A program made the translations under genes and the position numbers. Under the pieces are notes generated by a model. That model had not been told where the DNA came from. It searched no databases and saw only the letters and a list, made by a program, of their open reading frames with translations. Source: Azolla caroliniana (taxonomy: Eukaryota; Plantae; Polypodiophyta). Taken from it: a stretch of DNA of 64,000 nt. Shown piece by piece: positions 1-52,719 of the stretch; within the stretch, counting starts at the first letter, position 1, and every line of letters starts with the position of its first letter. The DNA lies in NCBI GenBank assembly GCA_043228905.1, contig JBHGNT010000021.1, positions 2,418,001-2,482,000 on the forward strand. The letters are read 5' to 3'.

Positions 1-2460
1 TTATTGCTACCCTTTTCCTTTCATCGCGGTCCATGTTCTCCGGGGGTACTCCGGTGCTCAGGAACTGATGCATCTCAGTTAGCCACGTGTCTTTATCGGC
101 TACCGTTGCATCCGTTGCCGGTTCCGTCGTGATCCGGAACAACTCGGCGTCGGGGAACTCATCCTGGACGCCGTCCCTTGCTTCTCCGGATTCGAGTCTG
201 CTTAGGTAGTCCGCTACCGCATGCTGCGCCCCGGGTCGGTGGAAAATGTCGAATTCAAATTCCTGTAACAACAATGTCCATCGTGCAATTTTTCCCGTCA
301 GGGATGCCTTCGAGACTAGGTGGAGTAGTGCCGAATGGTCGACATGGAAGGAAAACTTCCTTCCGAGCAGATAGTGCCTGTACTTTGTGACACTATACAC
401 CATTCCCAATGCCTCGCGTTCCGTCGTAGAGTAGTTCCGTTCGGCTTTTGAGAGTTTCCGGCTTGCGTAGTACACCGGTCGGTACCATTTCGGCTCCGTG
501 AGTTGCATCAGAACGCTGCCGATTGCTACGTCCGACGCGTCGACGAGGACGTGAAAGCTTTTACTCCAATCCAGCGGTTGCACCACCGGAGCTTGCGACA
601 GCATAACCTTCAACGCTTGGTAGGCTTCCTCCTCCGTCTCCGCCCATAGGAAGGGTACCCTGTGTACGGCAGTATGTAATGGTGTAGCGAAGTCTGCGAG
701 GTGCCGTATCATCCGGCTATGCCACCTTATTTGGCCCAGGAACCGGCTTAAAGCCTTTGCGTTATTTGGTGCTGGTGCCTCGAGAATCGCCTTGACTTTA
801 TCCGGATCTACCGCGATTCCTTCCTTACTCACCACGTGCCCTAGTAAGTTGCCGCTTGCCACTCCAAAGACGCACTTGGCCGGGTTCAGACTCAACCGGT
901 ACTCGCGGCACTTCTCCAAGCACAGCCGGAGGTGATCGAGATGCTCTCCGTGCCAGCTGTAGACCACGAAATCGTCAAGGAAGACCTGCATAAAACCGGG
1001 GATATATTCCCCGAAAATTTCCATTATTATCCTTTGAAAGGTCGTTGGAGCCGTCTTTAGTCCGAACATCATCACGACCGAGACGAACACTCCCCATTCC
1101 GTAACGAACGTTGTCTTCTCTTGGTCGGCCGGGTTCATTCGTATTTGGTTGTAGCCGCTAAATCCATCCAGGAAGCTGTAAACTTCGTGGCCGGCTACCG
1201 CATCTAACACCCCGTCCGTAAATGGTAGTGGAAACGCATCGGTCACTGTTGCGGCATTTAGTTTGCGATAGTCCACGCATACCCGGATTTTGCCGTTCTT
1301 TTTCGGGACCACCACTATCGGACTCAGCCAGGTTGCCTACTTGACCGGTCGGATAAATCCAACCCGGAGGAGCTTATCAATTTCCTCCTTCACCTTCGCC
1401 GCATAATTCGGATTCATCCGGTACCTGCGTTGAGCGATCGGTTTCGCGTCCGTACTTAGGTGAATTTGGTGCTGATAGAGCTGGGGGTCCAGCCCTCGCA
1501 TGTCTTCGTACGACCACGCGAACACATCCTTGAAGTCTATTAATAATGCTACCATTGCCTTCTTTTCTTCCTTCGGCAATTCCTTTGCGACATTTACCGG
1601 TCGGGGCTTGTTTGTTGTGCCGAGGTCCACCTCCTCTAGTTGGGATGCTTTTACCCTTTGGGATATCGTCATTTCCCTCTCTAGGGATTCCTGCGCTTGT
1701 CGCAGTTCCCGGATCGCCGCTTGGTCCGGTTCGTCCGGCGTCGTAATGTACGGTTCTACTGCCGCCGTGATATCCACCTCAAATAGTGGGACGATTCGTG
1801 GGTGTTCCTCGAGGTACCGCTCGACTTCCTCGTCCGGTAATCCCTCCAACATGTTGATGCTTTCCGCATACAATGGAGTTGCTTCCTTACTGGCGATCAC
1901 CCGTGGTTGCGTCGTTACTCGTACCTTTGTTTTCCCTCGCCGGAATGTGATCATGTTCTTTTGCCAGTTTTGCTTGATATGCGCCGTTCGCAGCCATGGT
2001 CGTCCTAGCAGTAGGGGGTACGCGCCTTGTACATTCAACTGTAGCACCACGGTCGATATCCGGAATACGTGGCCTCCGATCGTTACTTCCAAATCCCGGA
2101 TAAGCCCGGTCGGTCGGACTGAGCTGGTATCCGCCATGCGTAACCAGAAGGGGCATGGTTCCCATTCCCGGATGCCCAGGTTATCGCATGTATGTCGGCT
2201 GATGACATTTACCCCGGAGCCTCCGTCAATAATCGTTCCAGCAATTTCCTTTCCTTTCACGATTGTCGTGATCGTCGGGCTACTTGTATCGACCACCGCT
2301 GGTCCTTCCTCCGGGTTGGAGAAGAATGCCGGTGCTGGCGTCGGCTTCGGTTTGCTCACGGATGCCTGTAAGTCTGCCGTAAACCGTGGCACCAACTGTA
2401 GTAGCCGTGCTAACGGCAGCACGATTTGACAGTCCTGTAGCGCTTGCCACGTCGGTTTTC
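1..2460 (-). pseudogene. pol of A1: aspartic protease, reverse transcriptase, RNase H; one in-frame TAG at 1337-1339
   Basis: Protease IIDGGSGVNVIS and LLLGRPWL. Manual translation past the TAG gives ATWLSPIVVVPKKNGKIRVCVDYRKLN, MQVFLDDFVVY (RT), then FHVLVDASD, ERNYSTTEREALGMVY and HAVADYLSRL (RNase H). Confidence 0.93.
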
Positions 2461-4473
2461 TCCTGGCTGTATGATTTCTTCGTCTTTTGGCATATTTTGG
2501 TCTCTTACTTCTGCCGCATTCTGTTCATTGGCCTCCTTGATCCATTGCGCCGCTTGTTTTCTGATTGCCTCCTGGGCTTCCCACTCGGCGGTCTTTCCCT
2601 TTGACCGGGTTGTGACCTGTTGTACTTCTGTTATTTCGGTTGTATCCATGTTGACTGCCGGCTGCTTGTCATTGGTTTTGCTTGGGCATTGGTTACTATA
2701 ATGGCCTTCCTTATGGCAGTAATAACAGTACACCTTGTGACTGTTGCTCGTTTCTCCTTTCTCCCCGGTTTGGAGGGTGGGTATGCTTCGGCGGTCGTCT
2801 TCGGTTTTTCGGTTATCCGATACCGATACTGGGTTGTCATTCCTTGCTGCCTCCCAACGTTCCTCTCTTCGGAAAAATCCACGCTTCTGATTCCGTCGGA
2901 AATTTCGGTTCCCTTGTCGCCTCTCTTCTCTGCGTCGTTCGTATTCCGGGGATTCGTCTCGGTCGTACCGGTCCCGGGGGTAGCTATCTCTGCGTTTCTC
3001 CTCTCGGTCATAGTTATCGCGTCTTCTATCAGCGTATCTGTTACCGCGTTCGCGTTGGTAGCGGTCGTCTCTCCGGAATCGATCCTCATCCGGGTTCTGA
3101 TTGCGCGGTTCTATGTGTCGAACCGGTGCTGCCTGCCGATTTAACAGGTTATATTCGCATCGGTCCGTTGTATGGGCTCGAGAGTTGCAGATCATACATT
3201 GTGTCCGCAGGGTGCAGTCTACTGTTGAGTGGCCCGAATTTAGGCATGTTGTGCATTCCTGTCGGAACCTCAGGTCTTCCTCCTTCGGGAGTGCCCGGTG
3301 TAACATCCCCATCGACAAGAAGGAGCTAGTCTTGTCCATTTCTAAGACCCGATCAATAACTTGGTCCATTGTCCTGGTGTGGAAATCAAGGACTCCGCAC
3401 ATTGTTCGAAGTGGCTCTTTCAGCGCGGCCAAAAAGACTGCTTTGGCTTCGTCTTCGGGTGGTGCTCTCGTCAGTTGGCTGTGCAGGGTCTGAAACCGAA
3501 TGATGAATTGTGGCACAGTCTCGTTCTCTTCCTGCCGGGTGGTGTAGAACTGCCCGACCAATTCCCTTTGCTCAACTTGTCTGTGAAAAAGCCTGAGGAA
3601 TTTGGCCTTCAAGGCATCGAATGTGGCAAAGCTGCCCGGTAAGTGCTTTGCGTGCCATCAGGCCGCCGGTCCTTCTAAGGTCATGCCGAATTCGGCGACT
3701 TTGGATCGTTCGGCTTCGGGCTCCGTCAGTCTTTGGGAGACATGGTTGGCTTCCCATGTTTGGATGAATGCGTACACATGTGCCTCCGCGTCGGGCTCAT
3801 CCCGGTACTTTGGGTATGGGTACGGCATCGTATCGTCCAACTGACTCTCCTGCTTTCTCCGCTCTCTGTCCACTGTTGGCGTCGGTGTGAGAACCTTTGG
3901 TTCCTCCGCGGTTGGTGCCGGTATCCGCTCCTTCAGTTCCTCCGCGGGTGTTGCCGGTGTCCGGTCCTTTGGTTCCTCCGCGGGTGTTGTCGGTATCCGC
4001 TCCTTTGGTTCCTTCGCGGGTGTTGTCGGTATCCGGTCAGCCTCCCTCGGCGATTGCCGGTCACCGAACTCCAAGGTTATTTCTTCCTCTGGCTCCGGTG
4101 TTACTGAGTCTTCCGACCCCTCTTCCCCCGGGTCTTTTGGTGTGTCGTGGCTGCTTTTATACCGGGACGCAACGCTTCCGTCGCTTTCCGACTCCGCCTC
4201 AAGTGTTGCGAATGCTTCCGAGTCCCCGTCGCCCCCGGTGAGCGTCTGTAGTATTGTTTCCGCCTCTTGCAGGCTTGTTATGCTACTGCCTTCGTCGGGG
4301 ACTTGCAGAACCCGGAACTGCAGTGCTTCTTCTGCGACTCTCCGAAGAGTTCTGGAGAATGACCGATCTCGCCGGATCTCGTCGACGGCTTGTTGCAGGG
4401 CTTCCCGTCGTTGCTCTCGTTCAGTGTATCGTCTCGCTCGTTCGGTGATGTGGTCGTCGTTTGGTCTAGACAT
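2410..4473 (-). pseudogene. gag of A1 with Pro/Glu-rich N-terminal repeats, capsid domain and three CCHC knuckles; in-frame TGA at 3658-3660
   Basis: ORFs 3658-4557 and 2410-3612 share a frame. Capsid-like RQEENETVPQFIIRF. Knuckles CTTCLNSGHSTVDC, CMICNSRAHTTDRC and CYYCHKEGHYSNQC. Copy A2 has CAA at the stop position. Confidence 0.85.
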
Positions 4474-4509
4474 CCATCCCCCGGTTGTCCTCTGCACTTT
4501 GCAGGAATC

Positions 4510-4519
4510 GTGGTCGCCA
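4510..4519 (-). other. Primer-binding site of A1 (TGGCGACCAC, tRNA-Arg-like)
   Basis: Lies 6 nt inside the 5' LTR and is identical in A2 (35380-35389). Matches the recalled 3' end of plant tRNA-Arg (...GUGGUCGCCA) over 10 nt. Confidence 0.65.
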
Positions 4520-4525
4520 AAATAG

Positions 4526-5134
4526 TGTTGTTTGCCTGGCCGGACTAGCCTCAACACAGGTGTCTATCCGACACTTCTCCAAAGGGGTGGTAAGGATTGG
4601 ATGCTAGGTTACACGCGTAAGATGATTACAATTAAGCACAGACGGTAAAACAATACGAAGATACATATAAACACGCAATAATTACTTTTGTATTACTTCC
4701 GTCAAAACCTTTACAAATCATCGGATCCTTTTATAGGCATCCGGCAAGGTTACAATCGGTGCACTTAGGCAACCGTGCCTGGCCGGACTAGCCTCAACAA
4801 AGGTGTCTATCCGACACTTCTCCAAAGGGGTGGTAAGGATTGGATGCTAGGTTACACGCGTAAGATGATTACAATTAAGCACAGATGGTAAAACAATACG
4901 AAGATACAGATAAACACGCAATAATTACTTTTGTATTACTTCCGTCAAAACCTTTACAAATCATCGGATCCTTTTATAGGCATCCGGCAAGGTTACAATC
5001 GGTGCACTTAGGCAACCGGCATCCGAATCGGTCCGGATCCGTCCCTCCGAATAATAATTATACTATTATTTACTTCCTATTATCCGATCCGACTCCGCCT
5101 TCCCACTTGTCCTTGCTCTTCTGACCGGTCAACA
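4526..5134 (-). repeat. 5' LTR of A1 containing a 243-bp tandem duplication (4533-4775 / 4776-5018)
   Basis: TG...CA ends. The duplicated block is present once in the 380-bp A2 LTRs. Confidence 0.92.
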
Positions 5135-14124: not shown

Positions 14125-14187
14125 TGGAGTATATGATGTTACTACCAAAAACTTGATCAAGAAGGTCAGATAGCTATATAAATATTT

Positions 14188-25588: not shown

Positions 25589-25654
25589 GTGGGGTTCTTC
25601 CAGTACGTCCGGACTACCGCGGCCCCACGCCCTGATAGCCCTCTCTAAAAATCC
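25589..25654 (-). other. Putative -1 ribosomal frameshift cassette of B (G GAT TTT TAG + H-type pseudoknot)
   Basis: Slippery heptamer at 25654-25648 and a 6-nt spacer. Stem 1 is GGGCUAUC/GGUAGUCC and stem 2 is GUGGGG/CCCCAC. Confidence 0.7.
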
Positions 25655-28600
25655 CCTCGGCTGCCGCCGCTGAGGGTCTCGCCATTCCTCTCATGGTTTG
25701 GACGTACGGTCCTGAATTGTACGGAATGCCGACCGTCCTAGCTCTTGACGCGCGCATACACTGAACCGTTGTCCAGCACTTTCGTCTCCATGCGTGTTGC
25801 CGTAATGTATGGCTCGCCGAGAATCACTGGGTGCAAGGATGTTTCATGCACGAAGAAATGTTGATCTATCTTGATGTCACCGACCTTTACGCGTATATTC
25901 GGGCGCGCACCATACAGCTCCTCCATAGCATGTTGTCGAGGTACTCCTCGCGGATGCGTGGAATGAGGCGGGACCTCGGGGTTCTTGTACCGAAGAGCAA
26001 TAGGGAAAGGAGAAGGGAAGGGACCCACTACGTGCGAGCGTAGATCCACAGGGACACGGCCCTTCGACACGAAGACGCCAGCGGGGAAAACAACACAGAG
26101 AGGCACAACGGTATGTAAGTATATATTAACAGAGACAAACAACAAAAGCACGAAGTCGGTTACAACCGAACAGGCCGGTGAACAGATGCCGATGCCTATT
26201 CGCAAACGCTCAGAAAGGAAGGAGTAGGTTGGAGGTGCTGCCGGAAGCACTCGGGCATTCCTCAGAGCAGCGCGAGCCTCACGAAACCTGCACAAAAAGA
26301 AGCTACGGAGAGTATGGAAGAGAGAGAAGCCTTCGACCGACAGCCCGACAGCACTTTGTCCTCTCTCTGATCCCGCCCTCTTCCTCGTCTCCCTCCTTTT
26401 ATAGGCAAGAAGGGAGCCGTTTCCTATTAACTTCCTACCTACCGAATCTACCTACCTAGGATCTTCCATGTCCCTAATTCTCTCTTATGTACAACATAAG
26501 GCGTACGTGCATGAAGAGCCGGTTCCTATGCTCCGGCGCACCGATTCCGCTTGTGGACGGTTTTCTTCACGACATCCGCCCCCACCTAACCGCGCATCCA
26601 CCGGCATGCGCCAAGTTGAGTTGGGACGGAGAAAACCGGTCCAGCCTTCATTCCCCGCCCGTCGGTTCTTCCTCGGTTTCGGATCGTTCGTCGTTCCGGT
26701 CCAAGTTAACCGGATCCGGCTTGTCGTCGTGACGCTTCTTGAACGCTTTGATCCACTTCCCAGCTACTGGTATCGCCATTCTCGTGCCGTCGAGTTCCGC
26801 CAGATGGTACGTCCCGTTGTCGTTGGCGCTTTGTACCACGTAAGGCCCAAACCACCTTCTTGCGAACTTCCGTGTTGCTCGGTGCTGGTTGTCGAGGCTG
26901 CTGTCATAGACTAGCACCCAGTCGCCTTCCTCGATCTTCTTCGGTCGGAACCGGCGCGTCCGGTCGAACCGGGCTTTGTTCCTCGTCCTTGCCACCCGAA
27001 GCTTTCCCGTAGCCTGCTCCACGTCCTCCGGTCTTCGCTCGAGCTGTCATATACGCGCCGCCAACAGTTCCTCCCGGCTCATCTCGTCTCTCCAGTCCAC
27101 GGTTGCCCACGAGGAAATCGTACGTTCCATCGGCATGATCGGCTTCTGCCCAAACATGAGCTCTGCCGGCATGAATCCGGTTACCGAACTGTGCGTAGTT
27201 CGGTCAGCCCACAACGCGTAAGGCAGCAACCGCGGCCAGTTCCCGACTTGCCCCCCGCATGCCCGAACTAACGCCTTGACGATCGGTCCGTGTCCGCGCT
27301 CCACCTTCCCATTCACCTCCGGATTGTACGCAGTGGTAAGCGAGAGCTTGACTCCTAGTCGGTCGAACAGCTCCTCAGCCTCTTCGGCGTCCAACTCCCC
27401 GCGATCAGCCACGATCTTCCCGACGCACCCGTACCGGCATATCACGTCCTCGATCAGGAACCGACATACGGCCGCGGTCGTTTTGTTCTGAAGGGCTCGG
27501 TCTTCCACCTGGTTCGTCAGATCTTCCCGAGCCAGGACCAGATACCGAATCTGTCCTACGCCCATCGGCATCGTCACCAGATCTACCATCCATTTGAAGT
27601 GGATGGTCGGAGGGTACGTAGGGTGAAGCTCGTCCCGATGCCGGACTATGGAGTGCATCTGACAGCTCTCGCAAGTTGTCACGAACCGATGCACGTCCCG
27701 GTACAGTCCCGGCCACCAGTACTTCCCCTTTATCTTCTCGAACGTGGCCCACGTTCCTCAGTGTCCAGCCCAAGGGTTGTCGTGGTAGGCCGTCAGCAGC
27801 TCCTCCTGTTCTTCCTTCATCGCCACCACCTGGAGCGGGACGCCGTTCCTCTTCTTCGGGTGCTTCCATAGGTATCCGTCCCGGAGAAAGAATCGGTATG
27901 CTTTCTTCCGAATCCGATTGGCCTCGTCTCTCGTCCATGACGCATCCGGCGTCATTGTCCTCAAGAAACCACCGATCTGCAGCCACTCGCCGTCATACTT
28001 GCTCTCGTCGAAGCCGTTAAGTGCCGGAGTGCTCGTCCCATCGGTCGTCAGTACGCCGCCTCGAAGAAGTCCATGCCGACTTCTTCGTCCTCCAAAACCA
28101 TGCCGCCCTCGTCATCAAACCTCGCCCTCGAAAGCATGTCGGCCATGGCGTTGTCCTATTCGGAAATGTGCCGTATTTCCGGGTCCAGGGACTTGATGTA
28201 CGATATCCACCTGAGCATCGCCAGGTCCGGTGTCGCGCATCCGAAAACCATGCCGAGAATCGGCAGGCAATCCGTCTCGATAATCACTTCTGTCCCGATC
28301 AGGTAGTCTTTGTCGGCCTTTACTGCCGAAACGATACCCTAGAGTTCGCGTTTAACCTGGGCGTACCCTCGTTGTCGCTCACTGAGGACCTTCGCGCCGA
28401 ATCGGATCGGGAACCGAATGCCGTCCTCATCTTCTTGGTTGACGACCCATCCGATCCCGGTCGGACTCGTATCTACCGTTATGTATACCGGGGTACCCTT
28501 TTCGTAGACAGCCTTCCGGAGCGCCGGTGCTACCGCAAGAGCTTCCTTCAGCTTCCGGACCAACTCCGTGTGCTTGTCTCGCCACTCGAATTTTCGCCCT

Positions 28601-30085
28601 TTCTTCAGCAACTCGTATAGCGGCTCCGCAACGTGGGCGTAATGCGGGATCCATATGTGGTAGAATGCACATGCCCCCAGGAACCTCCGAACTTTCGTAA
28701 CCGAGCTACAGTCGGTCATCATCGCGGAGATGGCTTCTACCTTTGCCGGAGACGGTTTCCGGCCATATGGTCCACATAGGTGTCCGACCACCAGGATTTC
28801 TGATTTCCCGAAGGCCGATTTCTCCCCGGAGAAGGTGAGCCTCGCATCCTCTAGCCTTTGTAGCACCTTCTCGCAGTCGTCGATGTGTGTCGCCACGAAT
28901 CGCCGGCATCCGTCTGGTCCGAGTGTTGCGTCCTTCTCTTCCACCGGGCACCCCTTGATCGGGATGTTGTCTAGAAATGGCATGGTGATGTCCGGGATGC
29001 AATCCCTCAGTACCTTGTTCATTGCATTCACCATGTGGGCCACCGAGTTGGTCCCTCCTTGTGGCAGGGTACACATTCGCACTAGGCCGAGGGGGGGTTC
29101 GCATCGTCGTAATGTCTCTGCTCTCCACGGCTAGCTTGAACTGGTCGTACCCCGAGTACAGATCACCGACCGAGTAAATCGACCTTCCGGCGAAGGCCTC
29201 CGCGAACTCCTCTATGGTCGGTCTGATTCCTGCGTTCCGAATGGTCACTCTGTTGACCGGCTGCAGGTCTTGAATGAAGCGCAATGTTCCGTTTTTCTTT
29301 GGTACGGTAAACCATCGGTTCGAGTATGGGGCACTTGACGGTTCGAGAATGCCCATATCGATTTTCTGCCTCAATAGCTCCATCAACTTCGGGATGTGAG
29401 CTCTCGATACTGGAATCGGCTTGAGATTCCACGGCACATGCAGTACCGTGAATATCACCATCGGCTCCACGATTGTCGGGTCTACGCACCCGATCTCTTC
29501 CGGTGAGAATGCGAAGGCTTTCCCGTGCCTTCCGAGCATTCTCCGAAACCGGTCTTCTTCCGCCGGTAGTAGGAACCCGCCCCCACCGATTTTGAGCTCC
29601 CGGAGCGTCCCGTCGGTGAAGGTGTGTCCTATGCAGACCGGATCTCGTAAACTGGGGTCCGACGCAACCCCTCTGATTCGGGACTCGCTGCCCTCCGGTA
29701 AGGGTGCCGCGACTGGCCTTACCTTCCGGTCCACAGTCTTGTACTTCGTGCTAACTCGGGCCGTCCGATCCGACCGGAGCCCCTGACAGAAGTTCGCGAT
29801 GACTTCGTACATCTCTTCGGAACATACCGGTATCGTCCGGTCTTCGTTAAGGTCTTCTCCGGCTACCTTCCTCAGCATCCCCAAGGTGTCGTCGAAGGAA
29901 ACCGCCTCCACGGCCCCGCTGATTTTCTCGTCCGGGCCGAGAACTCCGCACGCTCGAAGTCGCTCCTCCGCCCTTGCCCTTTCTCGGCCAACGATGCCGA
30001 CTATCATACACCCTCCGTTGTTGGAGAAGCAGAATTTTCTACCTATTTTACAAGGTTTCTTCGGTTTCGGTTCTATCGTACAGCT

Positions 30086-30151
30086 GTGGGGTCTTTCCCG
30101 AGTGTCCGGACTGTCTCGGCCCCACGCCTTGGCAGCCCTCTCTAAAAATCC
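30086..30151 (-). other. Putative -1 ribosomal frameshift cassette of C (G GAT TTT TAG + H-type pseudoknot)
   Basis: The Gag-PR ORF stops at 30142. The -1 frame is open from the slippery site directly into RT ORF 28706-30007. Stem 1 is GGGCUG/CAGUCC and stem 2 is GUGGGG/CCCCAC. Confidence 0.75.
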
Positions 30152-32313
30152 TCTCGGTTCTCGCCACCGAGGGATTCACGGATTCGCTCGTGGTTCGGCC
30201 GCACCGTCAGAAATTGGACCGAATGGCGCCCGTCCTGGCTCTTGACCCTCGCGTAGGCCGAACCGTTGTCCAGCACTTTGGTCTCCATTCTCGCCGCTGT
30301 GATGTATGGTTCCCCTAATATGACCGGATGCGAGGACGTCTCCTGCACGAAGAAGTGTTGGTCAATCTCGACGTCGTCGATCTTGACACGCACATTCGGG
30401 CAGGCCCCGTGCAGTTCCTCGGTGGCGCGCGTCGCCGCCCGTATCTTCCACCCGTGCTTGGTGTTGATCGGCCATTTTCCCCTTTTGTAGAAGTCCATGG
30501 ACATCAGGTTTATTTCCGAACCGTGGTCCACCAGTGCCACCACCGGTTCCTGAACATCTCCGATCTTTACCGGGGTCTCCGTGGTCGCTCGGGCCCAGTG
30601 CGGCCTCGAATAGTGGCTCTCCGCCCACTCACCTTCCAGCGCCAAGTCGTCGATGTGCGTCGTCCGCACCTCCACCGGTCTTTCCGGTTCCGTCTCCGTC
30701 GACAGCCTCTTCCGTTTTACCAAGTCCACAATGGAGTCGTGGAACTCCTTCTTGGCGATCCCTAGCACCTCCCGCAATGACAGCTCCACCTTGCTGTCGA
30801 GGATCCGTTCTTCTAGGACCTTTCGTAGGTCCGTGGTCCTTTCTATTTCCGTCCCCAGTCGGTATCCGCCCTTCTTGGGGTTATCTTGCGCGCTGGACCC
30901 ACCGGCTTCGTTCCGTTGTTGCCCGAATCGAGTCTCGTATCGTTGTGAGGGCCCAGCCGCTCCGGCTTTCCCCACTCGTTTGTCTTCTACCAGAGCCTCG
31001 TAGTTCCAGCAGGCGGCTTCTACGAAGCCTGTCTTCTCCTCGACCGGATCGCTCCACCCGGTTATTTCCCGGACCCGTCTCTCAGCGCGGTCCGTTTCAT
31101 CTTTCCTTAGTCGTGCGTTGCCGACCAAAATCCGTCTTTGCCCTCCTTTCGGGCCTTGCTGCCCCCGACCCGAATGCCGGCCAACGCCGAGTAGTGGATG
31201 ACCTCCACGTGTCGGACCGCTGCCTCTTCCATCAGTCTCTTCATACCTCCCCGCCCGTCGTTTCGGTTTAGGGCCCTTCTGGTGTCGCCGGCGTGCACCC
31301 GGCCTTCCCACAGGTACACCACCCGGTTCCTCAACGCTTCTGCGAAATCGCCGCAGTCCTTCCGGATGTGGCCGACCTCGTCGCACCACATGCACTTGTT
31401 CCCTGCTGCCGGTCGTCGGTCACAAGCCGGTTCGCCGCCTTCCCTTCGAATCTGGGAGATCTGGAGATCCTTTATCGCCCGCATCAACTCCTCCAGCGCT
31501 GCTCCTCCGGATGAGCCATTGACCATGCCGGTCGAAGCCGAACCGGTTTCGAGCCACTCCCGGGTCTCTTCCCTTCGCCCTTGCGGTGCCGGGTCAAGCC
31601 TCCTTGCTATGACCGAGCCCGCACCGGCCGCCCCATTATCAGCCCATTCTCGCCGTTTGTCGAAACGGCCACAGACTCTCTTAACCGCAGCCCAGTCGGT
31701 CGTCAACCCGTCTTCGGTTTCCAGCAAGGAGCCGACTTGATCCCGGTCCCGCTCGTCCACCGACTTGACGAACAGTAGGACCCGGCTCGTATCCAGAATG
31801 GTTCGGTCAAGCGCCGAAAGGCGCGCAAAGCGTTCCTCAAACTCCTGGAGGAGCGCCGACGCGTTTCTTCCCTTGCTGGGGGACTCCACCCATTCCATGA
31901 AGTCCCGTTTCGAAAGCCGGAGCGCGTCGTCTGTTGTCTGTCTGGCCAAACTAGCCTCAACACAGGTGTCTACCCAACACTTCTCCAAAGGGGTGGTAAG
32001 GATTGGATGCTAGGTTACACGCATAAGATGATTACAATTAAGCACGGACGGCAACCAATACGAAATACAGATAAATACACAATAATTACTCTTGTATTAC
32101 TTCCGTCAAAACACTTTACAAATCATCGGATCCTTTTATAGGCATCTGGCAAGGTTACAATCGGTGCGCTTAGGCAACCGACATCCGAATCGGTTCGGAT
32201 CCGGATCGGTACAACTATACCGAATCCGTCCCTCCGAATAATAATTCTACTATTACTTCCTATTATCCGATCCGCCTTCCCACTTGTCCTTGCTCTTTTG
32301 ACCGGCCAACACA

Positions 32314-32329
32314 TGGCACGCCCGTGGGA
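32314..32329 (+). other. Second PBS-like site (TGGCACGCCCGTGGGA, tRNA-Arg-UCU-like) occupying the PPT position of A2
   Basis: Lies 2 nt inside the 3' LTR on the antisense strand, and no purine tract is adjacent to this LTR. Resembles the recalled Tat-type PBS TGGCACGCCCGGTGGGA with one G missing. Confidence 0.6.
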
Positions 32330-32361
32330 AAGTGCCTTGCACTTCGAATCCACACCCGGCC

Positions 32362-34581
32362 TCAGTCTTCCTCCAAAATATTGAGCACACTTTGCTCGAT
32401 AGTGTCAAGTGGTGCTTCTTCCTCCTGTTCCTGTTCCTTGCCTGCCTGGTCTCCGACCTCCTGTTGGGTAGGCTGTTCCGTAAAAAATTTCTGCTCGGGC
32501 TCTGCTTGATTCCGTGGTGCCGGTGCTTCCTCACCGCTTCGTCCGGGTTCTTCCTGTTCTCCCTCCGTTCCTGGCTCTGTTATGTTACCGGTGTCGCTTT
32601 CTCCGGTCTCGACTGGTCGACTTGATATGCCTCCTTCCTCTGCTCTAGTGTCTTCCGGTCTCAGCTCTTCTTCTTCTCCGGCATCGGTCCGCTCCTGCTC
32701 TTCTTCAAGTTCGTCTTCAGGTATTCCTCGTCGGGGTTGTTCGGGGTCGGTTGGTTCATCTTCATCCGGTCGCGTTCCCTCACCAATAGTGGTTGGCGTC
32801 GTTCTTTCCTTAGCTTCCTGTCGTAACCGGTCCTGCTCGTATCTCTCCAACTCCAACTGAGTTGCGAGCTGCCCGTCATCCAACCTCTCTACCAACCCTC
32901 GGATTTCTTTGAGGTGTTCTTCTGCTAAAGTGTAGAAATCCTCCGACAATTCCTCCCGAATGGTGACGATACTTTCTTCATCCATCTTATAGAACCTGTC
33001 ACCGGTCTTCTTCCGATTCTCGGCATCCGCTCGGAGTGTCTGCAGCTCGGCTGCCTGTTGTGACCACTCCTTCCATAGCTTTTCTGTACTTTCGTTGATA
33101 CTTGCCTGAGCTCGGGTACTCCATCCTGACATGATGAGCTTGATCCGGTCAACTCCTGCCTTAGCATGCGCATAAGCTTCCTACTTTTCCTTCCTTGCCC
33201 GTTTTATAATGTCGGCCATTATCTGAGCCTGGGCCTCGTAATCTGCTTTCTGCTTTTCATAGGTACTCTGCAGTTTGCTGATCGTGAAGGTCGATTTTTC
33301 CTTTTCTTCATTCCTGATCTTGGTCAGGTCCAGCTTTTCCCGCCTTAGCGCCTCTAATTCCTTCCTTCTCTCCGTTGCTTGGGCTATTTCCGCCGACAAT
33401 GCTTCCTTGCTAGCACTGACCTCATCCATCGCCTTAGCCAGGTCTAATCGGGTCTCTTTGAGCTGCTCTTTCAGCTTCTCTATTTGCCGGTCGTAGTCTG
33501 CTGCTCGTTTTTTGTTGTCCGACTCGGCCTGCTTGTGATCTCGGTAGAGACGGTCGAAGTCCTCCGTCTTCTGCTTCAGGCGTCGGGTTGCCTGAGCTCT
33601 TAACCGATCGTCCCGGTCCTTCTGTTGTCGGAGTTCTTCCTGCAGTCGTTCTATCTCTTGTTCGGCATGTCGACGTAGTCGGTCCTTCTCCTTCTGCAGC
33701 TTCTCTTTTTCTTCTTGCAGTCGGTCATTAGCGGCTCGACCTTTCCGGAGGCCTTCTTCCATTTTTCGTCTGTCATCCTCCACCGCTTTCCGCTGCTCCC
33801 TTTCTCTTTCCCTTAATGCCTCCTGAGCTTGTAACTCCTCTCGTAAGGTTTCTATTATTTTTTCGGTCTCAGGGCCGGTTTGCAAGGCTACCGGTTCCGG
33901 TTCCGATTCTGGTTGCTTCCTTGTTGTCCCGACCGGCTCGGTGACAGCTTGTGCTTGTTGAATTCCTTCCCTTGCCTGCAACAGCTCCCCTTGCATTTCC
34001 TCGATCTGTGTTCGGAGCGCGACCAACTCCTGAGTTGTTGTATGCGTCAGCTGTTGCCGACACGTTTCTTCTTTCTTTAACTGGTCTGCTACTCCCGATA
34101 ACTGCTCCGAAAGCCATCTCAGCCATTGTGGCTTTGTTCTTCCGATTTCGGGGTGGCCTTGCTCACTTAAGCCAGGCTGATTTTCCGGCCTCTTCTCTGG
34201 CTCCGGCTCCGGCGCTCGTTCCTTCTTCTTCTCTGGGATGACCGGTTTTCTGAAGTCCGGCCCAACCGGTGTCGGTGCTGCTTCCCTGGGTACGGGTTCC
34301 GGTGTTGTTTCCGCCTCGGCTACTGGAGATGGTCCTTGCGCCCTCTGCTGAGTTCTGTCCACTGGTGGAGCCGGTCCTTTCGCCCGTTTCTCCCGACCTT
34401 GTCTTGCTGGGAGTCTTACCAGTGGTTCGGATGAGTCTTCTGTTTCAGTTTCCTCCTCCGGTGCGGGTACCAGATGGACCTTTTGTCTAGAGACCTCTGG
34501 TTCCGGTTCCGGCCGTCGCAGCGTTATATGGATTGGTTTGCACGCTACCGGTTCCTCCTCGGCCGCTTTCCCTTTGCTCAA
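32362..34581 (-). pseudogene. Extra 3' ORF of family A, about 740 aa (Pro/Glu-rich N-terminus, long coiled coil, acidic tail), one in-frame TAG at 33181-33183
   Basis: ORFs 33181-34581 and 32362-33132 are in frame with 16 sense codons between them. E/K/R/Q-rich heptads and no hydrophobic segment. Confidence 0.75.
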
Positions 34582-36120
34582 ATTGTCTGTGAAAAAACCT
34601 GAGGAATCTGGCCTTCAAGGCATCGAATGTGGCAAAGGTGCCTGGCAAGTGCTTTGCGTGCCATTGGGCCGCCGGTCCTTCTAAGGTTATGCCGAATTCG
34701 GAGATTTTGGATCGTTCGGCTTCAGGCTCCGTCAGTCTTTGGGAGATATGGTTGGCTTCCCATGTTTGGAGGAATGCGTACACGTGTGCCTCCGCGTCGG
34801 CCTCATCCCGGTACTTTGGGTATGGGTACGGCATCGTGTCGTCCAACTGACTCTCCTGTTCCCTCCGTTCTCTGTCCGTTGTTGGCGTTGGTGTGAGAAC
34901 CTTTGGTTCCTCCGCGGGTGTTGCCGGTGTCCGGTCCGTTGGTTCCTCCGCGGGTGTTGTCGGAATCCGCTCCTTCGGTTCCCTCGCGGTTGTTGTCGGT
35001 ATCCGGTCAGCCTTCCTCGGCGGTTGCCGGTCACCGAATTCCAGGGTTATTTCTTCCTCTGGCGCCGGTGTTACTGAGTCTTCCGACCCCTCGTCCTCCC
35101 GGTCGTTTGGTGTGTCGTGGCTGCTTTTATACCGGGATGCAACGCTTCCGTCGCTTTCCGACTCCGCCTCAAGTGTTGCGAATGCTTCCGAGTCCCCGTC
35201 GCCCGCGGCGAGCGTCTGCAGTATCGTTTCCGCCTCTTGCAGGCTTGTTATGCTACTGCCTTCGTCGGGGATTTGCAGAACCCGGAACTGTAGTGCTTCT
35301 TCTGCGACTCTCCAAAGAGTTTTGGAGAATGACCGATCCCGCCGGATCTCGTCGACGGCTTGCTGCAGGGCATCCCGTCGTGGTCGCCAAAATAGTGTTG
35401 TCTGTTTGGCCGGACTAGCCTCAACACAGGTGTCTACCCGACACTTCTCCAAAGGGGTGGTAAGGATTGGATGCTAGGTTACACGCATAAGATGATTACA
35501 ATTAAGCACGGACGGCAACCAATACGAAATACAGATAAATACACAATAATTACTCTTGTATTACTTCCGTCAAAACACTTTACAAATCATCGGATCCTTT
35601 TATAGGCATCCGGCAAGGTTACAATCGGTGCGCTTAGGCAACCGACATCCGAATCGGTTCGGATCCGGATCGGTACAACTGTACCGAATCCGTCCCTCCG
35701 AATAATAATTCTACTATTACTTCCTATTATCCGATCCGCCTTCCCACTTGTCCTTGCTCTTTTGACCGGCCAACATCGTCCAGCCCATATTTTTCTAGGA
35801 GTCGGCCCTCGAACTCCTCCCAGGTATGGCTCTCCGCCCGTACCTCGAGCACCTCCGCATGGATGCTCGGCATCGCCACTCGAGGGAACCCGGCAAGACG
35901 CCTCTCTTCCAGAATGTCCTGCATCAGCATTTCTGCCCTGTAGGACGCCAAATACTTCGTGGCATCCTTTCCGCTGAACCGGCCGATCGTACCGACAACC
36001 GCCTCAATGGCTCTGTTGAGGGCGCCGGAGCCCTTGCGTGCGCTCAATATCCGATCCACGGCCGAAGCCATGGCCTCCGCAAGATCCGACCCTTTCATCT
36101 TCTACTCTTCTGCCGCCTCC

Positions 36121-36138
36121 TTCACGTCGGGTTCACCA
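36121..36138 (-). other. tRNA-Trp primer-binding site of C (TGGTGAACCCGACGTGAA)
   Basis: 18-nt complement of the recalled plant tRNA-Trp 3' end UUCACGUCGGGUUCACCA, 3 nt from the LTR. Variants occur in B (about 38635-38652) and D (about 5962-5979). Confidence 0.85.
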
Positions 36139-38860
36139 AGATGTCGAGGTACTCCTCGCGGATGCGTGGAATGAGGCGGGACCTCGGGGGTCTTGTACCG
36201 AAGAGCAATAGGGAAAGGAGAAGGGAAGGGACCCACTACGTGCGAGCGTAGATCCACAGGGACACGGCCCTTCGACACGAAGACGCCAGCGGGGAAAACA
36301 ACACAGAGAGGCACAACGGTATGTAAGTATATATTAACAGAGACAAACAACAAAAGCACGAAGTCGGTTACAACCGAACAGGCCGGCGAACAGATGTCGA
36401 TGCCTATTCGCAAACGCTCAGAAAGGAAAGAGTAGGTTGGAGGTGCTGTCGGAAGCACTCGGGCATTCCTCAGAGCAGCGCGAGCCTCACAAAACCTGCA
36501 CAAAAAGAAGCTACGGAGAGTATGGAAGAGAGAGAAGCCTTCGACCGACAGCCCGACAGCACTTCGTCCTCTCTCTGATCCCGCCCTCTTCCTCGTCTCC
36601 CTCCTTTTATAGGCAAGAAGGGAGTCGTTTCCTATTAACTTCCTACCTACCGAATCTACCTACCTAGGATCTTCCATGTCCCTACTTCTCTCTTATGTAC
36701 AACATAAGGCGTACGTGCATGAAGAGCCGGTTCCTATGCTCCGGCGCACCGATTCCGCTCGTGGACGGTTTTCTTCACGACAACGCGTCGATGCCCGTAT
36801 TTTCCAGCCATGTTTGGTGTTGATCGGCCATTTCCCCTTTTTGTAGAAGTCCATGGACATCAAGTTGAATTATGAACCGTGGTCCACCAACGCCACCACC
36901 GGCTCCTGGACATCTCCGATCTTAACAGGGGTCTCCGTGGTCGTTCTGGCCCAGTGCGGCCTCGAATAGTGGCTCTCCGCCAACTCGTCTTCTAGCGCCA
37001 TGTCCTCTATGTGCGTCATTCGCACTTCCACCGGCTTCTCCGGCTCTGGCTCTGTCGACAGCCTCTTCCTCTTCACCAAGTCTACGATGGAGTCGTGGAA
37101 CTCCTTGGCGATCCCGAGCACTTCCCTCAGCGACAGCTCCACTTTGTTGTCGAGGATACGTTCCTCCAGGACCTTTCGCAGGTCTGTGGTCCTTTCAATT
37201 TCCGTGCTCAACCGGTACCCAGCCTTCTTGGCTTTATCCGGTGCGCCGGTCGCACCAGCCTCATTCTACCTTTGACCGAACCGGGTCTCGTACCATTGCA
37301 AGGGCCCGACCCCTCTGGTTTTACCTACTCGCTTGTCTTCCACCAAAGCCTCGTAGTTCTGGCATGCGACTTCAACGAAGCCCGTCTTCTCTTCGACCGG
37401 GTCACTCCACCCGGTTACCTCCCGGACCCGTTTTTCCGTGTGGTCCGCTTCTTCTTTCCTTAGTCGTGCACCGGCGAGGCCTTCCAGCATCAGCGGCCAG
37501 AATCCGGCTTCGTTCGTCTTCCGGGCCTCACCACCTCCAACCCGGATCCTAGCCGACACCAAGTAGTGGACGGTCTCCGTGTGGCGAGCCGCCGCTTCTT
37601 CCATTAGCCGTTTCATACCCCCTCGTCCGACATTCAAGTCCAGGGCCCTTCGGGTCTCGCTAGCATGAACCCGACCGTTCCATAGGTACACCATGTTGGC
37701 TCTCATTGCCTCGGCGAAGTCCTACCAGACGTGGCCGACCGCGTCGCACCACAAACACCGGTTTCCAGCCAGAGGCCTTCCGTCACGGGCCTATTTGCCG
37801 CCGTCCCTCCGTACCTGTGCAATCTGGAGGTCCTTTACCATCCTAGTTAGCTCCTCTAGAGTTGCTCCTCCGGACGAGCCTTTGACCATGCCGGTCGAAG
37901 TCGATCCGGTCTCGAGCCAGTCTCGGGTCTCTTCCCTTCGCGCTGGCGGGGTTGGCTCGAGTTTCCTTGCTGCTACAGAGCCCGCCCCTGTTGATCCTTT
38001 ATCGACCCACTCTCGCCGTTTGTCGAAACGGCCACAGACTCTCTTCACCCCGGCCCAATTGGCTGTCAGCCCGTCATCAATCTCCAGAAGGAGACCCACT
38101 TGCTCCCGATCCCTTGCATCCACCGACTTAACGAACAGCAGGATGCGACTTGTGTCTAGTACGATCCAGTCGAGCGCCGAAAGACGTGCAAAGCATTCTT
38201 CAAACTCCCGGAGGAGCACTGACGCGTTTCTCCCCTTTTTGGGGGTCTCTACCCATTCCATGAAGTCCCGCTTCGAGAGCCGAAGCGCGTCATCAAGCCC
38301 GTATTTTTCAAGGAGCCGACCTTCAAACTCTTCCCAAGTCTGGCTCTCAGCCTGTACCTCGAGCACCTCCGCATGGATGCCCAGCATCGCCACCCGAGGT
38401 AATCCGGTCAGTCGCCTTTCTTCCAGAATGTCTCTCATTACCATCTCGGCCCGGTAGGCCTCCAAATAACTCGTGGCGTCCTTCCCACTGAACCGTCCTA
38501 TCGTGCCGACGACCACTTCAATAGCCCTATCGAGGGCGCCTGCGCCTTCACGCGCACTCACTATCCGATCCACAGCCAAAGCCATGGCTTCCGCAAGATC
38601 CGACCCCCTCATCTTCCTATTCCTCTGCTGCCTGTTCACGTCGGGTTCACCTAATATGTCGCGTTGTTACGAGCGTGCGTGGAGAACGAGGCGGGACCAC
38701 CGGGGTCTTAGACCGAGAAATAGCTGAGAAGGAGGAGAACGGAAAGGCAACGGACGCACTTGCACACGCACAGACACGGGAGCACACAGGAATCACAGTC
38801 CAACAACACAGCAAAATGAGACGACTAGAAGTCCGAGTATATGAACACATATGTATATAA

Positions 38861-38898
<38 letters not shown>

Positions 38899-39803
38899 AC
38901 GGTTACAACTAACAAGCCGGCAAGGCGAACACCGCTGTGTGTTCACTCACACACAGAAGAGCGAGATGGAGACTCTGCCGGAAGCACACAGGCGTTCCAC
39001 TGAGCAAAGTCAACCTCCCGAAAACCTGCGCAAAAAAATGGCTATGGAGAGTGGCAGAGGAGAAGAGCTCGGTCCCAGTCCAGCAGCACTTCATCCTCTC
39101 TAGCGCGCAATACCTTTTTCATTCCTCTCCCTCTCTTTTATAGCCCAAGGAGGGAGGTCGTTATCATTCGTTACATCACATTAATTCTCTGTCCTTTCGG
39201 ACAGGGATACACCTCGATTCTCTCCCTATTGAATGCATGCTACCTAGGATTTCACCTCAGCCGACTTGTACCTACCTACTTACCATACAACAAAAAGTGT
39301 GATCGCGTGTAAAGGTCAGTTTACACACGCTAAACTCGATTTCCGCCTAGGGACGGTTTTCTTCACGACAACGGTTGTACCTATATTCTCCTCACACATG
39401 TACACCCTTGCACATGAGATCTATATATACCTCATTGATGGTATTTTTGTATCTGATGATGCTTTCTAATATAGTTACTCATCCCCCATCTTGTGTTGCA
39501 ACTTGCTCATAAGTGTAGTTCTCTCTCTCTCTTCCTCTCACACACATACACACACATATCACTTAATCTTCCGCTTAACTTAATCACATAATTAGGTACT
39601 AATTAACCCGTAGTTAATCACCTAATTCTTAACATGGTATCAGAGTGTGTGGTTTAGCCCATTCGACTCTTCATAATTGTGTGTTCGAAACGCCGACGAC
39701 GAATTCCGGCTATCCGCTACCGTAGTGCCATTACGTAGCACGAGTAAGTGATTGAGCGAAGGAAATCGAAAAAGGAAGACACTACATTAAAATTAACACA
39801 CAA

Positions 39804-42490
39804 ATGGGTAGCTCGCTCCCTAGTGAAAAGCTAGACCGGAGCAATTATTCATCTTGGGAGTACAAGATGACTCAATACCCTGTCGGCCAAGGGTATTGGA
39901 GCTACATCAACGGCGCTCAAGAAATTCGACCCGATTCAAAGAACGCCGACTACGCAATATGGGAGCAAGTGGCGAGTCGAGTCATGTATTGCTTGGCAAC
40001 ATGTGTCCACGACCACATGCTTAGCCACATTCGAGACGCTAAGACACCTAAAGAAGCGTGGGCGAACTTAAAGAAAATGTTCACCGCCAACACAACCGCC
40101 CGAAAGCTTCATCTCCAACAAGAGTTGAACAACATTCGGCAAAAAGACATGTCCGTGTCGGAGTACACCGACAAGATTAAGAGCATTTGCGACTCGCTTG
40201 GCTCCATCAACATAATCGTCGACGAAGACGAGATGGTTCGAGTATGCTTGGGCGGCCTCACACAACGATTCGACTCGTTGAGGACGGCAATCTTGGCAAT
40301 GGAAAACCCTCCTTCATTCTTCGACCTTCAATCAATGCTAATGGTTGAAGAGAACCACGTCCAAACCAAAACCAAGAGATCGGAAGGACAAATGTTCTTC
40401 TCGAATTCGGATGGTGGCCAGGAACGAAGTCGAGGCGGTAGAAGAGGTCAATTCGACCCATCGAACGAAGGGAACTCAAACCTTCGACAACAAGATGGAA
40501 GCCATCGAGGAACCTTCGGAAGAAGGGGGAGCTTCCATGTCGAAAAAGGTCAACAAACGTGACCCATAACTTGCAATTGTTGCGGCAAATTTGGTCACCG
40601 CAAAGAGGAGTGTCGGAAAAAGAGAAGTGAGTCGGCTTTGACAAGCCGACAACTCGCAAACTACGCCAACAACTCCGAATACGAAGACTACGGTGGTCTA
40701 TTCGTAACGAGACATAGAGCGAACTCTATGACCGTGTCCAACTCCGCAAGCACCTCCAATTCGGAACATGTGTGGTTCGTCGATTCCGGCGCCTCACATC
40801 ACATGACATCTCACGAAGAGTCGTTTAGTGATTTACGCACACCCCGTCGACCCGGCATCATAGAGACAAGTGATGACACCACACATCTGATTCGGCTCAT
40901 TGGCAACGACGGCCAAAACAATTGCATCAAGAATGTCTTGCATGTGCCCACAATAACGAAGAATTTGGTCTCGGTCGGCCAAATCGTGGAGCAAGGCATG
41001 TAAGTTCGTTTAAACAATGAAGGTTGTTTCATCGAGAAAGATGGCTGACTCATAGCCAAGGGACGGAGAAACGGTTGAATGTTCATCCTCGATTCAAACG
41101 AGGTGAAATCAGCCATGTATGCCAAAGGTCTCAAAACCAAAACAAACATCGAGTTGTGGCACAAAAGAATCTGCCACATAAACCTCCAACAACTTCGAGC
41201 GATGCAAACCAAGGGAGTCGTCATCGGACTTTCGACATTCAAGTCGAAACGAGTCGACCGTGTATGCGAAGCGTGTCAACTCAGCAAACAACATCAACTC
41301 CCATTCCCGAAGGAGAGCTACACGAGCAAAGGCCTCCTCGACATCATACATTCAGATGTATGGGGACCGGCTCAAACGCCGACGATCGGCAGATGCCGAT
41401 ACTACGTAACCTTCATCAACGACTACTCCCGCTACACGTGGATCTTTCCGATGAAGAAGAAGAGCGAAGTGGTCTCCCACTTCCAAAAGCTCAAGGGCCA
41501 AGTGGAGAAAGAAACTGGTCAGCACATTCGATGCCTACGATCGGACAGAAAAAAGGAGTACTTCTCCGATGAATTCACCTCCTACCTCCAAAGTGAAGGC
41601 ATTCGTAGAGAATTCTCGTGCCGACACACACCCCAACAAAATGGAGTAGCCGAAAGGAAGAATCAGCAAATACTCAAGGTAGCACGCGCCATGATGCATG
41701 AGAAGCACATGCCGAACTTCTATTGGGACGAAGCGGCATCCCCGGCTATCTATCTCATGAATCGATGCACCACCAACGGAGTGCGTGAGGTAACTCTATA
41801 TGAGCTCCTCGTCGGAAGGAAGCTGATCCTGTCACACCTCAAGGTGTTCGGAAGCATTGCGAATGTACGCATCCCGAACGAACAACAACAAAAGCCCAAC
41901 GTGAAGTCGGAGGAATGTATCCTCGTAGGATACTCATCCGAGAAGAAGGCATACAAGTGCCTCAACCCCTTGACCCGACCGGTTCGGATAAGTCAGGATG
42001 TAGACTTCGACGAATCGGCATCTTGGTATAAGCCCGATTCGGCTCCACCCAACCCGACTAAGGAAGAGTTGAACGTCAACTCGGAGGAAGGTATTCGGAC
42101 AAGTCCTCTACCAAAGGATAACCCAAGCCCACCCGAGCCTTCAAGCCTTCCAAGCACGTCACGGCTAAGTACGACCTTGGACAAAGGCAAAGGTAAGATG
42201 CCCGAATACGAAGTCGATCACCCCGACTACAGTGATTTGTATGTGTCGGCTCCCTCACTAGACAATGAATTTGGTGTACCCATCATGTAGACACCCGGAG
42301 TAAAGAAGACGCTCACATCGGCGAGCGAAAAACTTCGACGCTCTTCTAGAGAGAAGAATATCGTCACTTGGCTCGGCTACAACAAGTACATGGCCCATCA
42401 TTATGCCTTTGCAATGAAGGTAGCGGCCAAACAAGAGCCCGAGAGCTCTATGGAAGTGGCTCGTGACCCACGATGGGTGAAAGCAGTCGA
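39804..42490 (+). pseudogene. Copia gag-protease-integrase; RT/RNase H deleted
   Basis: NYSSWEYKM gag, CNCCGKFGHRKEEC, WFVDSGASHHM, LWHKRICH, HSDVWGP and PQQNGVAERKN. The EPES...DPRWVKAV motif that precedes RT is followed within about 160 bp by the PPT and LTR. Confidence 0.92.
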
Positions 42491-43084
42491 TCCAAGCCTT
42501 CGTCACAGGCTTGAGGGGGAGGAACCTAAACTGCCACGACATAGAAGCCGACACCGAAAGTCGCACAAAAGCCGACATTGAAAGCCGGACAACGACGAAA
42601 ACAAAACCGGATGTCGGACGCCTCACACTTGAGCTTGAGGGGGGGGGCGTGTTGAGAGATCAAGCTCAACTAGAGTTAGTTAGTTAGTCAACCATGTAAC
42701 TCCGTAGTTACCTAGATAGAATCTAGTTAGAAGTGTTGACTATAACGCCTTAAATAGGACCTTGTACTTAAGTAGGATATTCTAGATCCTCCACTCCCAA
42801 GGTCATTTAATATAGAACTTACACGGTTGTACCTATATTCTCCTCAAACATGTGCACCCTTGCATATCAGATCTATGTATACCTCATTGATGGTATTTTT
42901 GTGTCTGATGATGCTTTCTAATATAGTTACTCATCCCCCATCTTGTGTTGTAACTTGCTCATAAGTGTAGTTCTCTCTCTCTTCCTCTCACACACATACA
43001 CACACATATCACTTAATCTTCCGCTTAACTTAATCACATAGTTAGGTACTAATTAACCTTTATTTAATCACATAATTCTTAACA

Positions 43085-43354
43085 TGTACAATGTATTATG
43101 GAACCCATGATATTATATTACTTGTCATTGTTGCCATGGACAAATAAGGCTTTGCAATCTGTTTTGCAACCTCTTCGATATTTGTTGTGGAAGAAGAGGG
43201 ATAAGATGGGAATCACTTGGATTGCGTGGAATCATCTAGCAACCCCTAAGCGCTTGGGGGAGCTGGAATATTGAACTTATCTATGCATATGATGGCTCAT
43301 AGTGTTGTTGGGTGGGGGGTGAAGCCTTTCTCCCAAGGGGTATTACGTGTGAGG

Positions 43355-52485: not shown

Positions 52486-52719
52486 GATCAGACGGGGCTT
52501 CAATCCCTACTCACCAGGTACTTTTCATATCTTTGCAAAGCGTTCCTTTAATCATGACTCAATTGCATGTTTTTTTCATATCTTTCTTCTTCTTGTTCTT
52601 CTTCTCCGCGTGTTCTTTTGTTCTATATGTTTGTATATGATGGTTCTCTCAACAACTCTGTGGATCGCGTGAAGTAGGGATCTGTTAAAATTCCTCCCGA
52701 GAACAAAAGATTGGCTTTT

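Follow-up and report, generated by a model that had tools for sequence, protein, structure and literature searches.

Long terminal repeat (LTR) retrotransposons and retroviruses are held, as a general rule, to prime the first DNA strand with a tRNA and the second with a polypurine tract (PPT). How would an element without a PPT start its second strand? The question is raised by A2, an element in a 64,000-nucleotide stretch of the Azolla caroliniana genome (assembly GCA_043228905.1, contig JBHGNT010000021.1, positions 2,418,001 to 2,482,000), which we refer to as the window and in whose coordinates positions are given. A2 (31932-35775, with the minus strand as coding strand) is a whole Ty3/gypsy copy with internal deletions; a second member of the same family, family A, is present in the window as A1. 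Before its 3′ LTR, A2 has an inverted site that matches the 3′ end of tRNA-Arg(UCU). Comparisons of sequence place A2 in a fern Ty3/gypsy clade without a PPT, and we consider it likely that the plus strand of these elements is primed at this site by a second host tRNA.

An inverted tRNA-Arg site in place of the polypurine tract

The sequence-only reading that drew attention to A2 had reported that no purine run abuts its 3′ LTR, and this was borne out. No PPT precedes the 3′ LTR: the last 15 nt include 8 purines, with a longest run of 3. The longest run is also 3 in two relatives from metagenomes, loci L003 and L059, as against 5-9 in six control ends. On the sense strand A2 reads ...TCCCACGGGCGTGCCA, then 2 nt, then the LTR; the inverted site, TGGCACGCCCGTGGGA, begins at 32314 on the plus strand, 2 nt off the LTR edge. 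The CCA end and the hairpin AAGTGC/GCACTT that had been described here are both present, and the likeness to a tRNA proved to be longer than claimed. Beyond the hairpin lies a further 10-nt copy of a T-stem and T-loop (32344-32353; the T-arm box), which in A2 carries one change (32349 T>C) that is absent from many copies. The motif thus corresponds to a tRNA T-arm and acceptor 3′ strand, with the hairpin inserted near position 58-59. It lies outside any open reading frame (ORF); an extra sense ORF, described below, stops before it.

The tRNA in question appears to be tRNA-Arg(UCU). Of the Arabidopsis 3′ fragment TTCGAGTCCCACCGGGCGTGCCA (PMC8482286 supplement), the element has the last 11 nt and then, without one C, the next 5. 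A maize tRNA-Arg(UCU) ending in GAGCGTGCCA (same supplement) equals the G>A variant found in L059, which is thus that of a real isodecoder. The 11-mer of the inverted site, with one mismatch allowed, matched once in the window against 0.47 expected (34 of 100 shuffles), and so is not rare by itself. Chance does not account for where it lies, for its agreement with a real tRNA end or for its conservation; on a rough estimate, one of 100 tRNA ends would be matched over 11 nt within 9 offsets of an LTR with a probability of about 2 in 10,000.

The inverted site is conserved in relatives and in public sequencing runs

A scan of metagenomes returned relatives of which the best 80 of 492 were analysed. 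The 3′ end could be placed in 11 of these loci, the other 69 having no placeable end, and it is visible in two loci of the family A clade: L003 (reverse transcriptase (RT) 88% by P0004) and L059 (integrase region 73-77%). In each of them the inverted site is accompanied by the hairpin and by a spacer of 2 nt. When both strands of 88 loci and of the window were searched, the pattern T-arm box, spacer, CCA, TG occurred at three places, namely in A2, L003 and L059. The LTRs of the three differ beyond their ends, and their left ends are exact (TGTT in 3/3).

More distant elements have ordinary ends. Nine further loci are purine-rich at the 3′ end, four as judged by LTR pairs (L054, L065, L071, L075) and five by homology (L056, L063, L067, L069, L070; weak in L056), and the PPTs of the elements next to A2 in the window (B1, B2 and a copia element) are likewise ordinary. 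In a quick tree search of 46 rows (31 loci chosen because integrase was covered or ends were visible, 2 window rows and 13 proteins), L003 and L059 fell in a 17-row clade with the metagenome polyprotein P0003 (Shimodaira-Hasegawa-like approximate likelihood ratio test, SH-aLRT, 100), and all 10 rows with a PPT fell outside it, 3′ ends being seen in 2 of the 17 rows and those of the sister group being unseen.

In contigs of public sequencing runs, the bin 32310-32343 was the deepest of 30 in 4/4 runs. For a 90-nt stretch, for which two other runs were added (one from an organism with only 8% of the element's words), depth again peaked on the motif in 4/4 runs; depth is here a sum over contigs rather than a copy number, and the ends of the stretch lose cover. 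None of the 40 variants listed, of 139, falls within 32310-32348; for the 90-nt stretch, the hairpin loop base 32336 was the sole variant listed, and no indel was listed. Among the 24 of 110 loose ends listed, the same motif is found joined to other LTR ends in 4/4 runs; in 3/4, loose ends have a different hairpin arm, behind which the T-arm complement is taken up again. The motif is thus common to many families and is kept better than the adjoining LTR.

These data bear directly on the possibility that the arrangement is a one-copy accident or an assembly artefact, such as an inversion or a tRNA fragment captured at a single insertion. The window shows a single 3′ end, and A2 is rearranged inside. 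Against this, the same junction occurs in two independent metagenome contigs and is bridged by contigs from runs labelled as three organisms, and A2 has a perfect target-site duplication (TSD) and LTRs that are 98.4% identical. We regard this explanation as largely refuted and very improbable. The inverted site is conserved, and none of the outcomes that the sequence-only reading had named as counting against its proposal was observed. A protein search of IMG/VR gave no relative; 6 exact matches to the motif in IMG/VR, none with LTR or hairpin context, were taken as chance, and prokaryote genomes gave 0 matches.

Conservation also speaks to a second possibility, that the primer is encoded by the element. 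Its own sense RNA would fold like a T-arm, survive RNase H, be cut behind the CCA and, as a structured replacement for the PPT, prime the plus strand, the tRNA likeness reflecting either an origin by capture or mimicry for RT. We think this unlikely. Such an RNA would, like a PPT, need no annealing step, being on the minus strand already; the sense segment folds as one long hairpin in 3/3 sequences (-17 to -19 kcal/mol), and the inner hairpin stays paired through double changes. However, a fold of this kind comes automatically from copying a T-arm, and the letters identical to the tRNA are kept while the inserted hairpin varies, the sole variant following a real isodecoder. With the tRNA letters kept and the hairpin free to change, selection looks like selection for pairing to an outside tRNA and not for shape alone. 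The stronger form of the idea, that the element encodes a full tRNA mimic, was not supported: ARAGORN called 0 tRNA genes, Rfam gave no tRNA match to E 10, and neither A2 nor A1 has a 5′ acceptor strand as partner for the motif.

The 5′ primer site matches a different tRNA-Arg

The motif that had been reported next to the 5′ LTR of A2, and as shared with A1, was found in both: TGGCGACCAC lies at 35389-35380, 6 nt inside the 5′ LTR of A2, and at 4519-4510 in A1. Two matches in the window compare with 0.07 expected, and 0 of 100 shuffles gave two. Behind the 5′ LTR, A2 has 6 nt followed by TGGCGACCACGA. A maize tRNA-Arg(CCG) fragment ending in CATCGTGGTCGCCA pairs with the site over 13 nt in A1, L002 and L003, and over 12 nt in A2, in which a second, small deletion begins directly behind the site. 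In the available part of the PMC7827920 supplement, an Arabidopsis tRNA-Arg(UCG) would pair over 10 nt, and a similar 12-nt stretch of the human endogenous retrovirus HERV9 is given as an Arg or Trp primer-binding site (PBS) in what we could consult of PMC4724089. The 6-nt spacer between LTR and site is identical in length in the Athila-type locus L075.

Downstream of the 5′ site come a conserved GATTCCTGC stretch and a putative small hairpin (window 4470-4525, L002 42-100, L003 918-976), which loosely mirror the 3′ site; the hairpin is suggested by folds of A1, L002 and L003 but differs among the three. Pairing of the 3′ motif with the 5′ site was considered as a means of self-priming and rejected, since no more than 5 pairs were anchored and the energy varied among copies, from -9 to -24 kcal/mol.

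Two sites facing inward could be used in either order. If antisense RNA were packaged, the split site with its 2-nt spacing would prime the first strand, the second strand would start from the other tRNA site or from the short purine-leaning spacer, and proteins would be made from a separate sense mRNA. Of the two, the 3′ site does lie at the more canonical distance from the LTR and pair over the longer stretch, and first-strand initiation on RNA templates is known to involve extended T-arm pairing (PMC5371799, in the part available). We nevertheless think this order unlikely, slightly more so than an element-encoded primer. Gag-pol and the extra ORF are on the opposite strand, and the spacer at the 5′ site is of the Athila type, as expected where a first-strand site works. 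Sense TATA-like boxes are present in the LTRs of A2 and L003 (positions 172 and 203), and A2 has none in antisense, although a weak antisense box occurs in L003 and L059. As for the spacer, the longest purine run in the 15 nt of the plus strand before 35396 is 4, and relatives have C and T there.

A proposed model for plus-strand priming by a second tRNA

The CCA end points into U3 from a distance of 2 nt, at the place where the PPT is missing, and plus-strand priming is thus its simplest use. From the anatomy, the two tRNA matches, the conserved motif and the missing purine run, all of them observed, we infer the following steps. Sense RNA would be packaged, and its minus strand primed by tRNA-Arg(CCG) at the 5′ site. 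RNase H would then clear the RNA, so that minus-strand DNA exposes a split anti-tRNA site of about 16-17 nt (acceptor and T-stem), a looped-out hairpin and about 10 nt (T-arm). tRNA-Arg(UCU), or its 3′ fragment, would anneal there as a three-way junction. Extension from its CCA end would begin plus-strand DNA at 2 nt from U3 and define the left end in the manner of a PPT. More speculatively, the skipped base and the hairpin, which interrupt the RNA/DNA hybrid, may spare the primer from RNase H until extension. Fresh or re-annealed tRNA could serve repeated use of the plus-strand primer. Our favoured reading, which we hold to be probable, is that the whole fern clade has dropped the PPT and uses two different host tRNA-Arg species for the two strands, the second on a split, hairpin-gated site, in what would be a symmetric, PPT-free cycle.

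Folding is consistent with the proposed junction. A 3′ 30-mer of a stand-in tRNA-Arg(UCU) cofolded with the minus strand of the three elements at -51, -45 and -44 kcal/mol, whereas shuffles had means of -23 to -24 kcal/mol and the best of 1000 reached -35 to -38; a three-way junction with the hairpin looped out formed in 3/3 elements. The 4-bp core of the hairpin pairs in 3/3 sequences (12/12 cells), with 2 pairs changed on both sides. The stand-in comes from viral contig L081 (298-391), whose tRNA-Arg(UCU) closely matches the plant-type sequence in its T-arm and acceptor 3′ strand.

Short, split sites of this kind are workable by analogy with Ty3, whose sites are short, split and T-arm-engaging. 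According to the available part of PMC5371799, split primer sites are known there, the tRNA does not serve to regenerate the PBS, and plus-strand priming makes repeated use of its primer. We had considered the fixed one-base gap as proof against a first-strand PBS and rejected it on the same ground, that the Ty3 PBS is not copied from the tRNA.

Several points weigh against priming by a second tRNA. A tRNA end annealed to DNA is a substrate of RNase H. Continuous full 3′ junctions number three only (A2, L003, L059), and L003 has CTA in place of CCA; its link between junction and pol is also indirect, since the junction precedes a shared LTR upstream of gag. With 24 of 110 loose ends listed, copies with another 3′ end are not countable, and loose ends at 32313 indicate that the spacing to the LTR may exceed 2 nt in another family. 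The tRNA ends compared are those of flowering plants (Arabidopsis and maize) rather than of a fern. The cofolding energies were obtained with a phage-borne tRNA (L081) and with RNA-RNA parameters in place of those for an RNA/DNA duplex, and covariation in the hairpin is not significant with three rows, 61 of 500 shuffles being as high. Finally, 1-methyladenosine at position 58 (m1A58) does not form a Watson-Crick pair (PMC13191261, in the part available), and would thus block one pair and weaken the T-arm part.

The motif might also not be a primer site. It could serve to bind or open a tRNA for packaging, act as a decoy for tRNA fragments or be an RNA signal, with the plus strand started from unspecific RNA fragments. 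Retroviral mutants can start plus strands independently of the PPT, and the motif in sense RNA could pair with the 5′ acceptor strand of a tRNA. None of these roles, however, needs a CCA, a fixed 2-nt distance to the LTR or the loss of the PPT, and the exact left ends of the LTRs (TGTT in all three) argue that a defined primer is needed. We therefore judge a role other than priming to be distinctly unlikely, below either of the two alternatives above, and return to plus-strand priming by tRNA-Arg(UCU) as the reading that we prefer.

If priming by a second tRNA were confirmed at the bench, an element of known kind would be found to have a new priming arrangement that breaks a supposedly general rule. 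A natural, high-copy clade without a PPT would mean that the second primer can be swapped, and the clade would allow a direct test of the properties that turn an RNA end into a plus-strand primer and of how RT/RNase H spares it. For tRNA-Arg fragments, both ends of the element would be targets or decoys. Annotation would be affected too: software that uses PBS and PPT to orient or filter LTR elements would lose such fern elements or give them the wrong orientation. No description of an inverted PBS in place of a PPT, or of such a cycle in any LTR element or retrovirus, was found in the literature searched, with subscription journals and Repbase-type records outside its scope.

Anatomy, coding capacity and classification of family A

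A2 had been called complete. This holds for its ends, with two 380-bp LTRs on the minus strand (TGTTG...CAACA) and a perfect TSD, but not for its interior, where an internal deletion has cut gag short and taken the whole of pol (protease, RT, RNase H and integrase). The LTR pair differs at 6 positions, transitions only (Kimura two-parameter distance 0.016). A2 breaks in gag at about 34568 and goes on, fused, in the second half of the extra ORF; it is non-autonomous. The coding strand was assigned as minus because A1, which has its LTR, 5′ site and gag in common with A2, runs on into protease, RT and RNase H on that strand. Features of family A in the window are collected in Table 1. In the 5′ LTR of A1 (4526-5134), the part from TATA to U5 is present twice through a tandem duplication of 243 bp whose copies are 99% identical. 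A1 sits in a gag-like stretch of family B (5457-6064), and both A copies are thus inside B elements.

Table 1 Features of A2 and A1 in the window
Feature	Positions	Strand	Details
A1, second family A member	1..5134	-	LTR 5134-4526 and same 5′ site (4519), then gag-PR-RT-RNase H interrupted by stops; truncated by the window edge, with the 3′ end outside
5′ LTR of A2	35396..35775	-	380 bp; TATA-like box at LTR position 172
3′ LTR of A2	31932..32311	-	
TSD GACGA	35776..35780, second copy 31927-31931	-	within gag of a family B element
Spacer, LTR to primer site	35390..35395	-	6 nt, T-rich
5′ primer-binding site	35378..35389	-	12 nt complementary to plant tRNA-Arg(CCG) 3′ end
gag fragment	34568..35380	-	P0003 residues 22-286, 75% identical; start deleted
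Extra sense ORF, C-terminal part	32362..34567	-	coiled-coil; in-frame stop 33181-33183; homologous to the L059 ORF
T-arm box	32344..32353	-	copies tRNA from about position 49 to 58, covering the 5′ strand of the T-stem and the T-loop
Small hairpin	32330..32344	.	inserted between T-arm box and 3′ part
Inverted primer site	32314..32329	+	anti-tRNA on minus-strand DNA; 11 nt exact to tRNA-Arg(UCU) including CCA, one base skipped, 5 nt more
Spacer, CCA to 3′ LTR	32312..32313	-	2 nt

The polyprotein P0003 (94% to A1 over RT-RNase H) has the order gag-protease (PR)-RT-RNase H (RH)-integrase (INT), with the RNase H active-site residues intact. It gave no chromodomain hit to E 0.1 and has a single RT-type RNase H, with no second, archaeal-type one. 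Family A thus shows the domain order (A1 and P0003), TG...CA LTRs, TSD and 5′ PBS of Ty3/gypsy elements, and lacks the PPT. Both tRNA motifs had been likened to the tRNA-Arg PBSs of Tat/Ogre-type elements; they do match tRNA-Arg 3′ ends, but the assignment to Tat/Ogre is not supported, as P0003 is without the archaeal-type RNase H. Judged by its proteins, family A is a member of the non-chromovirus branch and groups with Athila-side elements. Its rows are separate from L075, P0002 and P0015, which were taken as Athila-type by PBS and hosts (in quick trees of our own rows, without named REXdb references).

An extra sense ORF lies behind the integrase. It is whole in L059 (1542-4406; 954 aa). 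At about 950 aa it comprises a conserved N-terminal domain, a coiled coil and an acidic tail that ends just before the tRNA motif. No Pfam family was found, with one Pfam match under the cut-off; atlas matches are all <0.9, a plant mobile domain (0.80 in 20% of members) being a weak lead. A sense ORF in this position occurs clade-wide (L059, L001, L002, L009, L018, L073 and window 32362-34567).

Comparison with known lineages

The comparisons that follow refer to the parts of the cited papers that were available. Ty3 (PMC5371799) resembles family A in its short 5′ PBS, split T-arm-engaging sites, LTRs and gag-PR-RT-RH-INT order. Its split site, however, complements one tRNA on the RNA strand, and its plus strand starts at a purine-rich PPT, whereas in family A the second site is on the opposite strand, matches a different tRNA and is not accompanied by a PPT.

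Set against the lineages tabulated in PMC6317226, family A does not fully agree with Athila, Tat, Phygy or Selgy. With Athila, a non-chromovirus OTA lineage (PMC6317226, 10.64898/2026.03.20.713144), it shares the lack of a chromodomain and of an extra RNase H, a 5-bp TSD, an extra ORF behind pol, an AT-rich LTR-PBS spacer (3-6 nt in Athila) and internally deleted non-autonomous copies. Unlike family A, Athila has tRNA-Asp, -Asn or -Ala PBSs and a conserved PPT junction, and its extra ORF is given as antisense, whereas that of family A is sense. The Tat elements (TatIII, Ogre and Retand; PMC6317226, PMC11963269) have tRNA-Arg sites, 5-bp TSDs and extra ORFs in common with family A, but are defined by the archaeal-type RNase H that P0003 lacks and by one PBS plus a PPT; Retand in particular is described with both (PMC11963269). 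Phygy and Selgy (PMC6317226) are likewise non-chromovirus elements of seed-free plants without an extra RNase H. They differ in having 4-bp TSDs, tRNA-Trp or tRNA-Ala sites and no extra ORF, as against the 5-bp TSD, Arg sites and extra ORF of family A.

Other elements in the window

Family B is represented by B1 (21465-39370) and B2 (25934-36782), nested gypsy elements with a TGGTGAACCCGAC primer site, which we take to be of tRNA-Trp type, and a normal PPT. B1 has a 4-bp CCGT target duplication. Family B fits the marks of Phygy, which in the available part of PMC6317226 is described from Physcomitrella only, whereas family B is in a fern. The Ty1/copia element (21290-21465 and 39371-43086) has a Met-type PBS and a G-rich PPT, its 5′ LTR being split by B1; the order of nesting is copia, B1, B2, A2. 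Elsewhere in the window are a 180-bp tandem array, a 201-bp duplication and RT fragments, one with zf-RVT and resembling a long interspersed nuclear element (46474-47188, 52719-53104, 19223-20873, 44161-44844), and an intronless GRAS (scarecrow-like) ORF of 721 aa (12052-14217, minus strand), fern-type and closest to Adiantum and Ceratopteris (61-62%).

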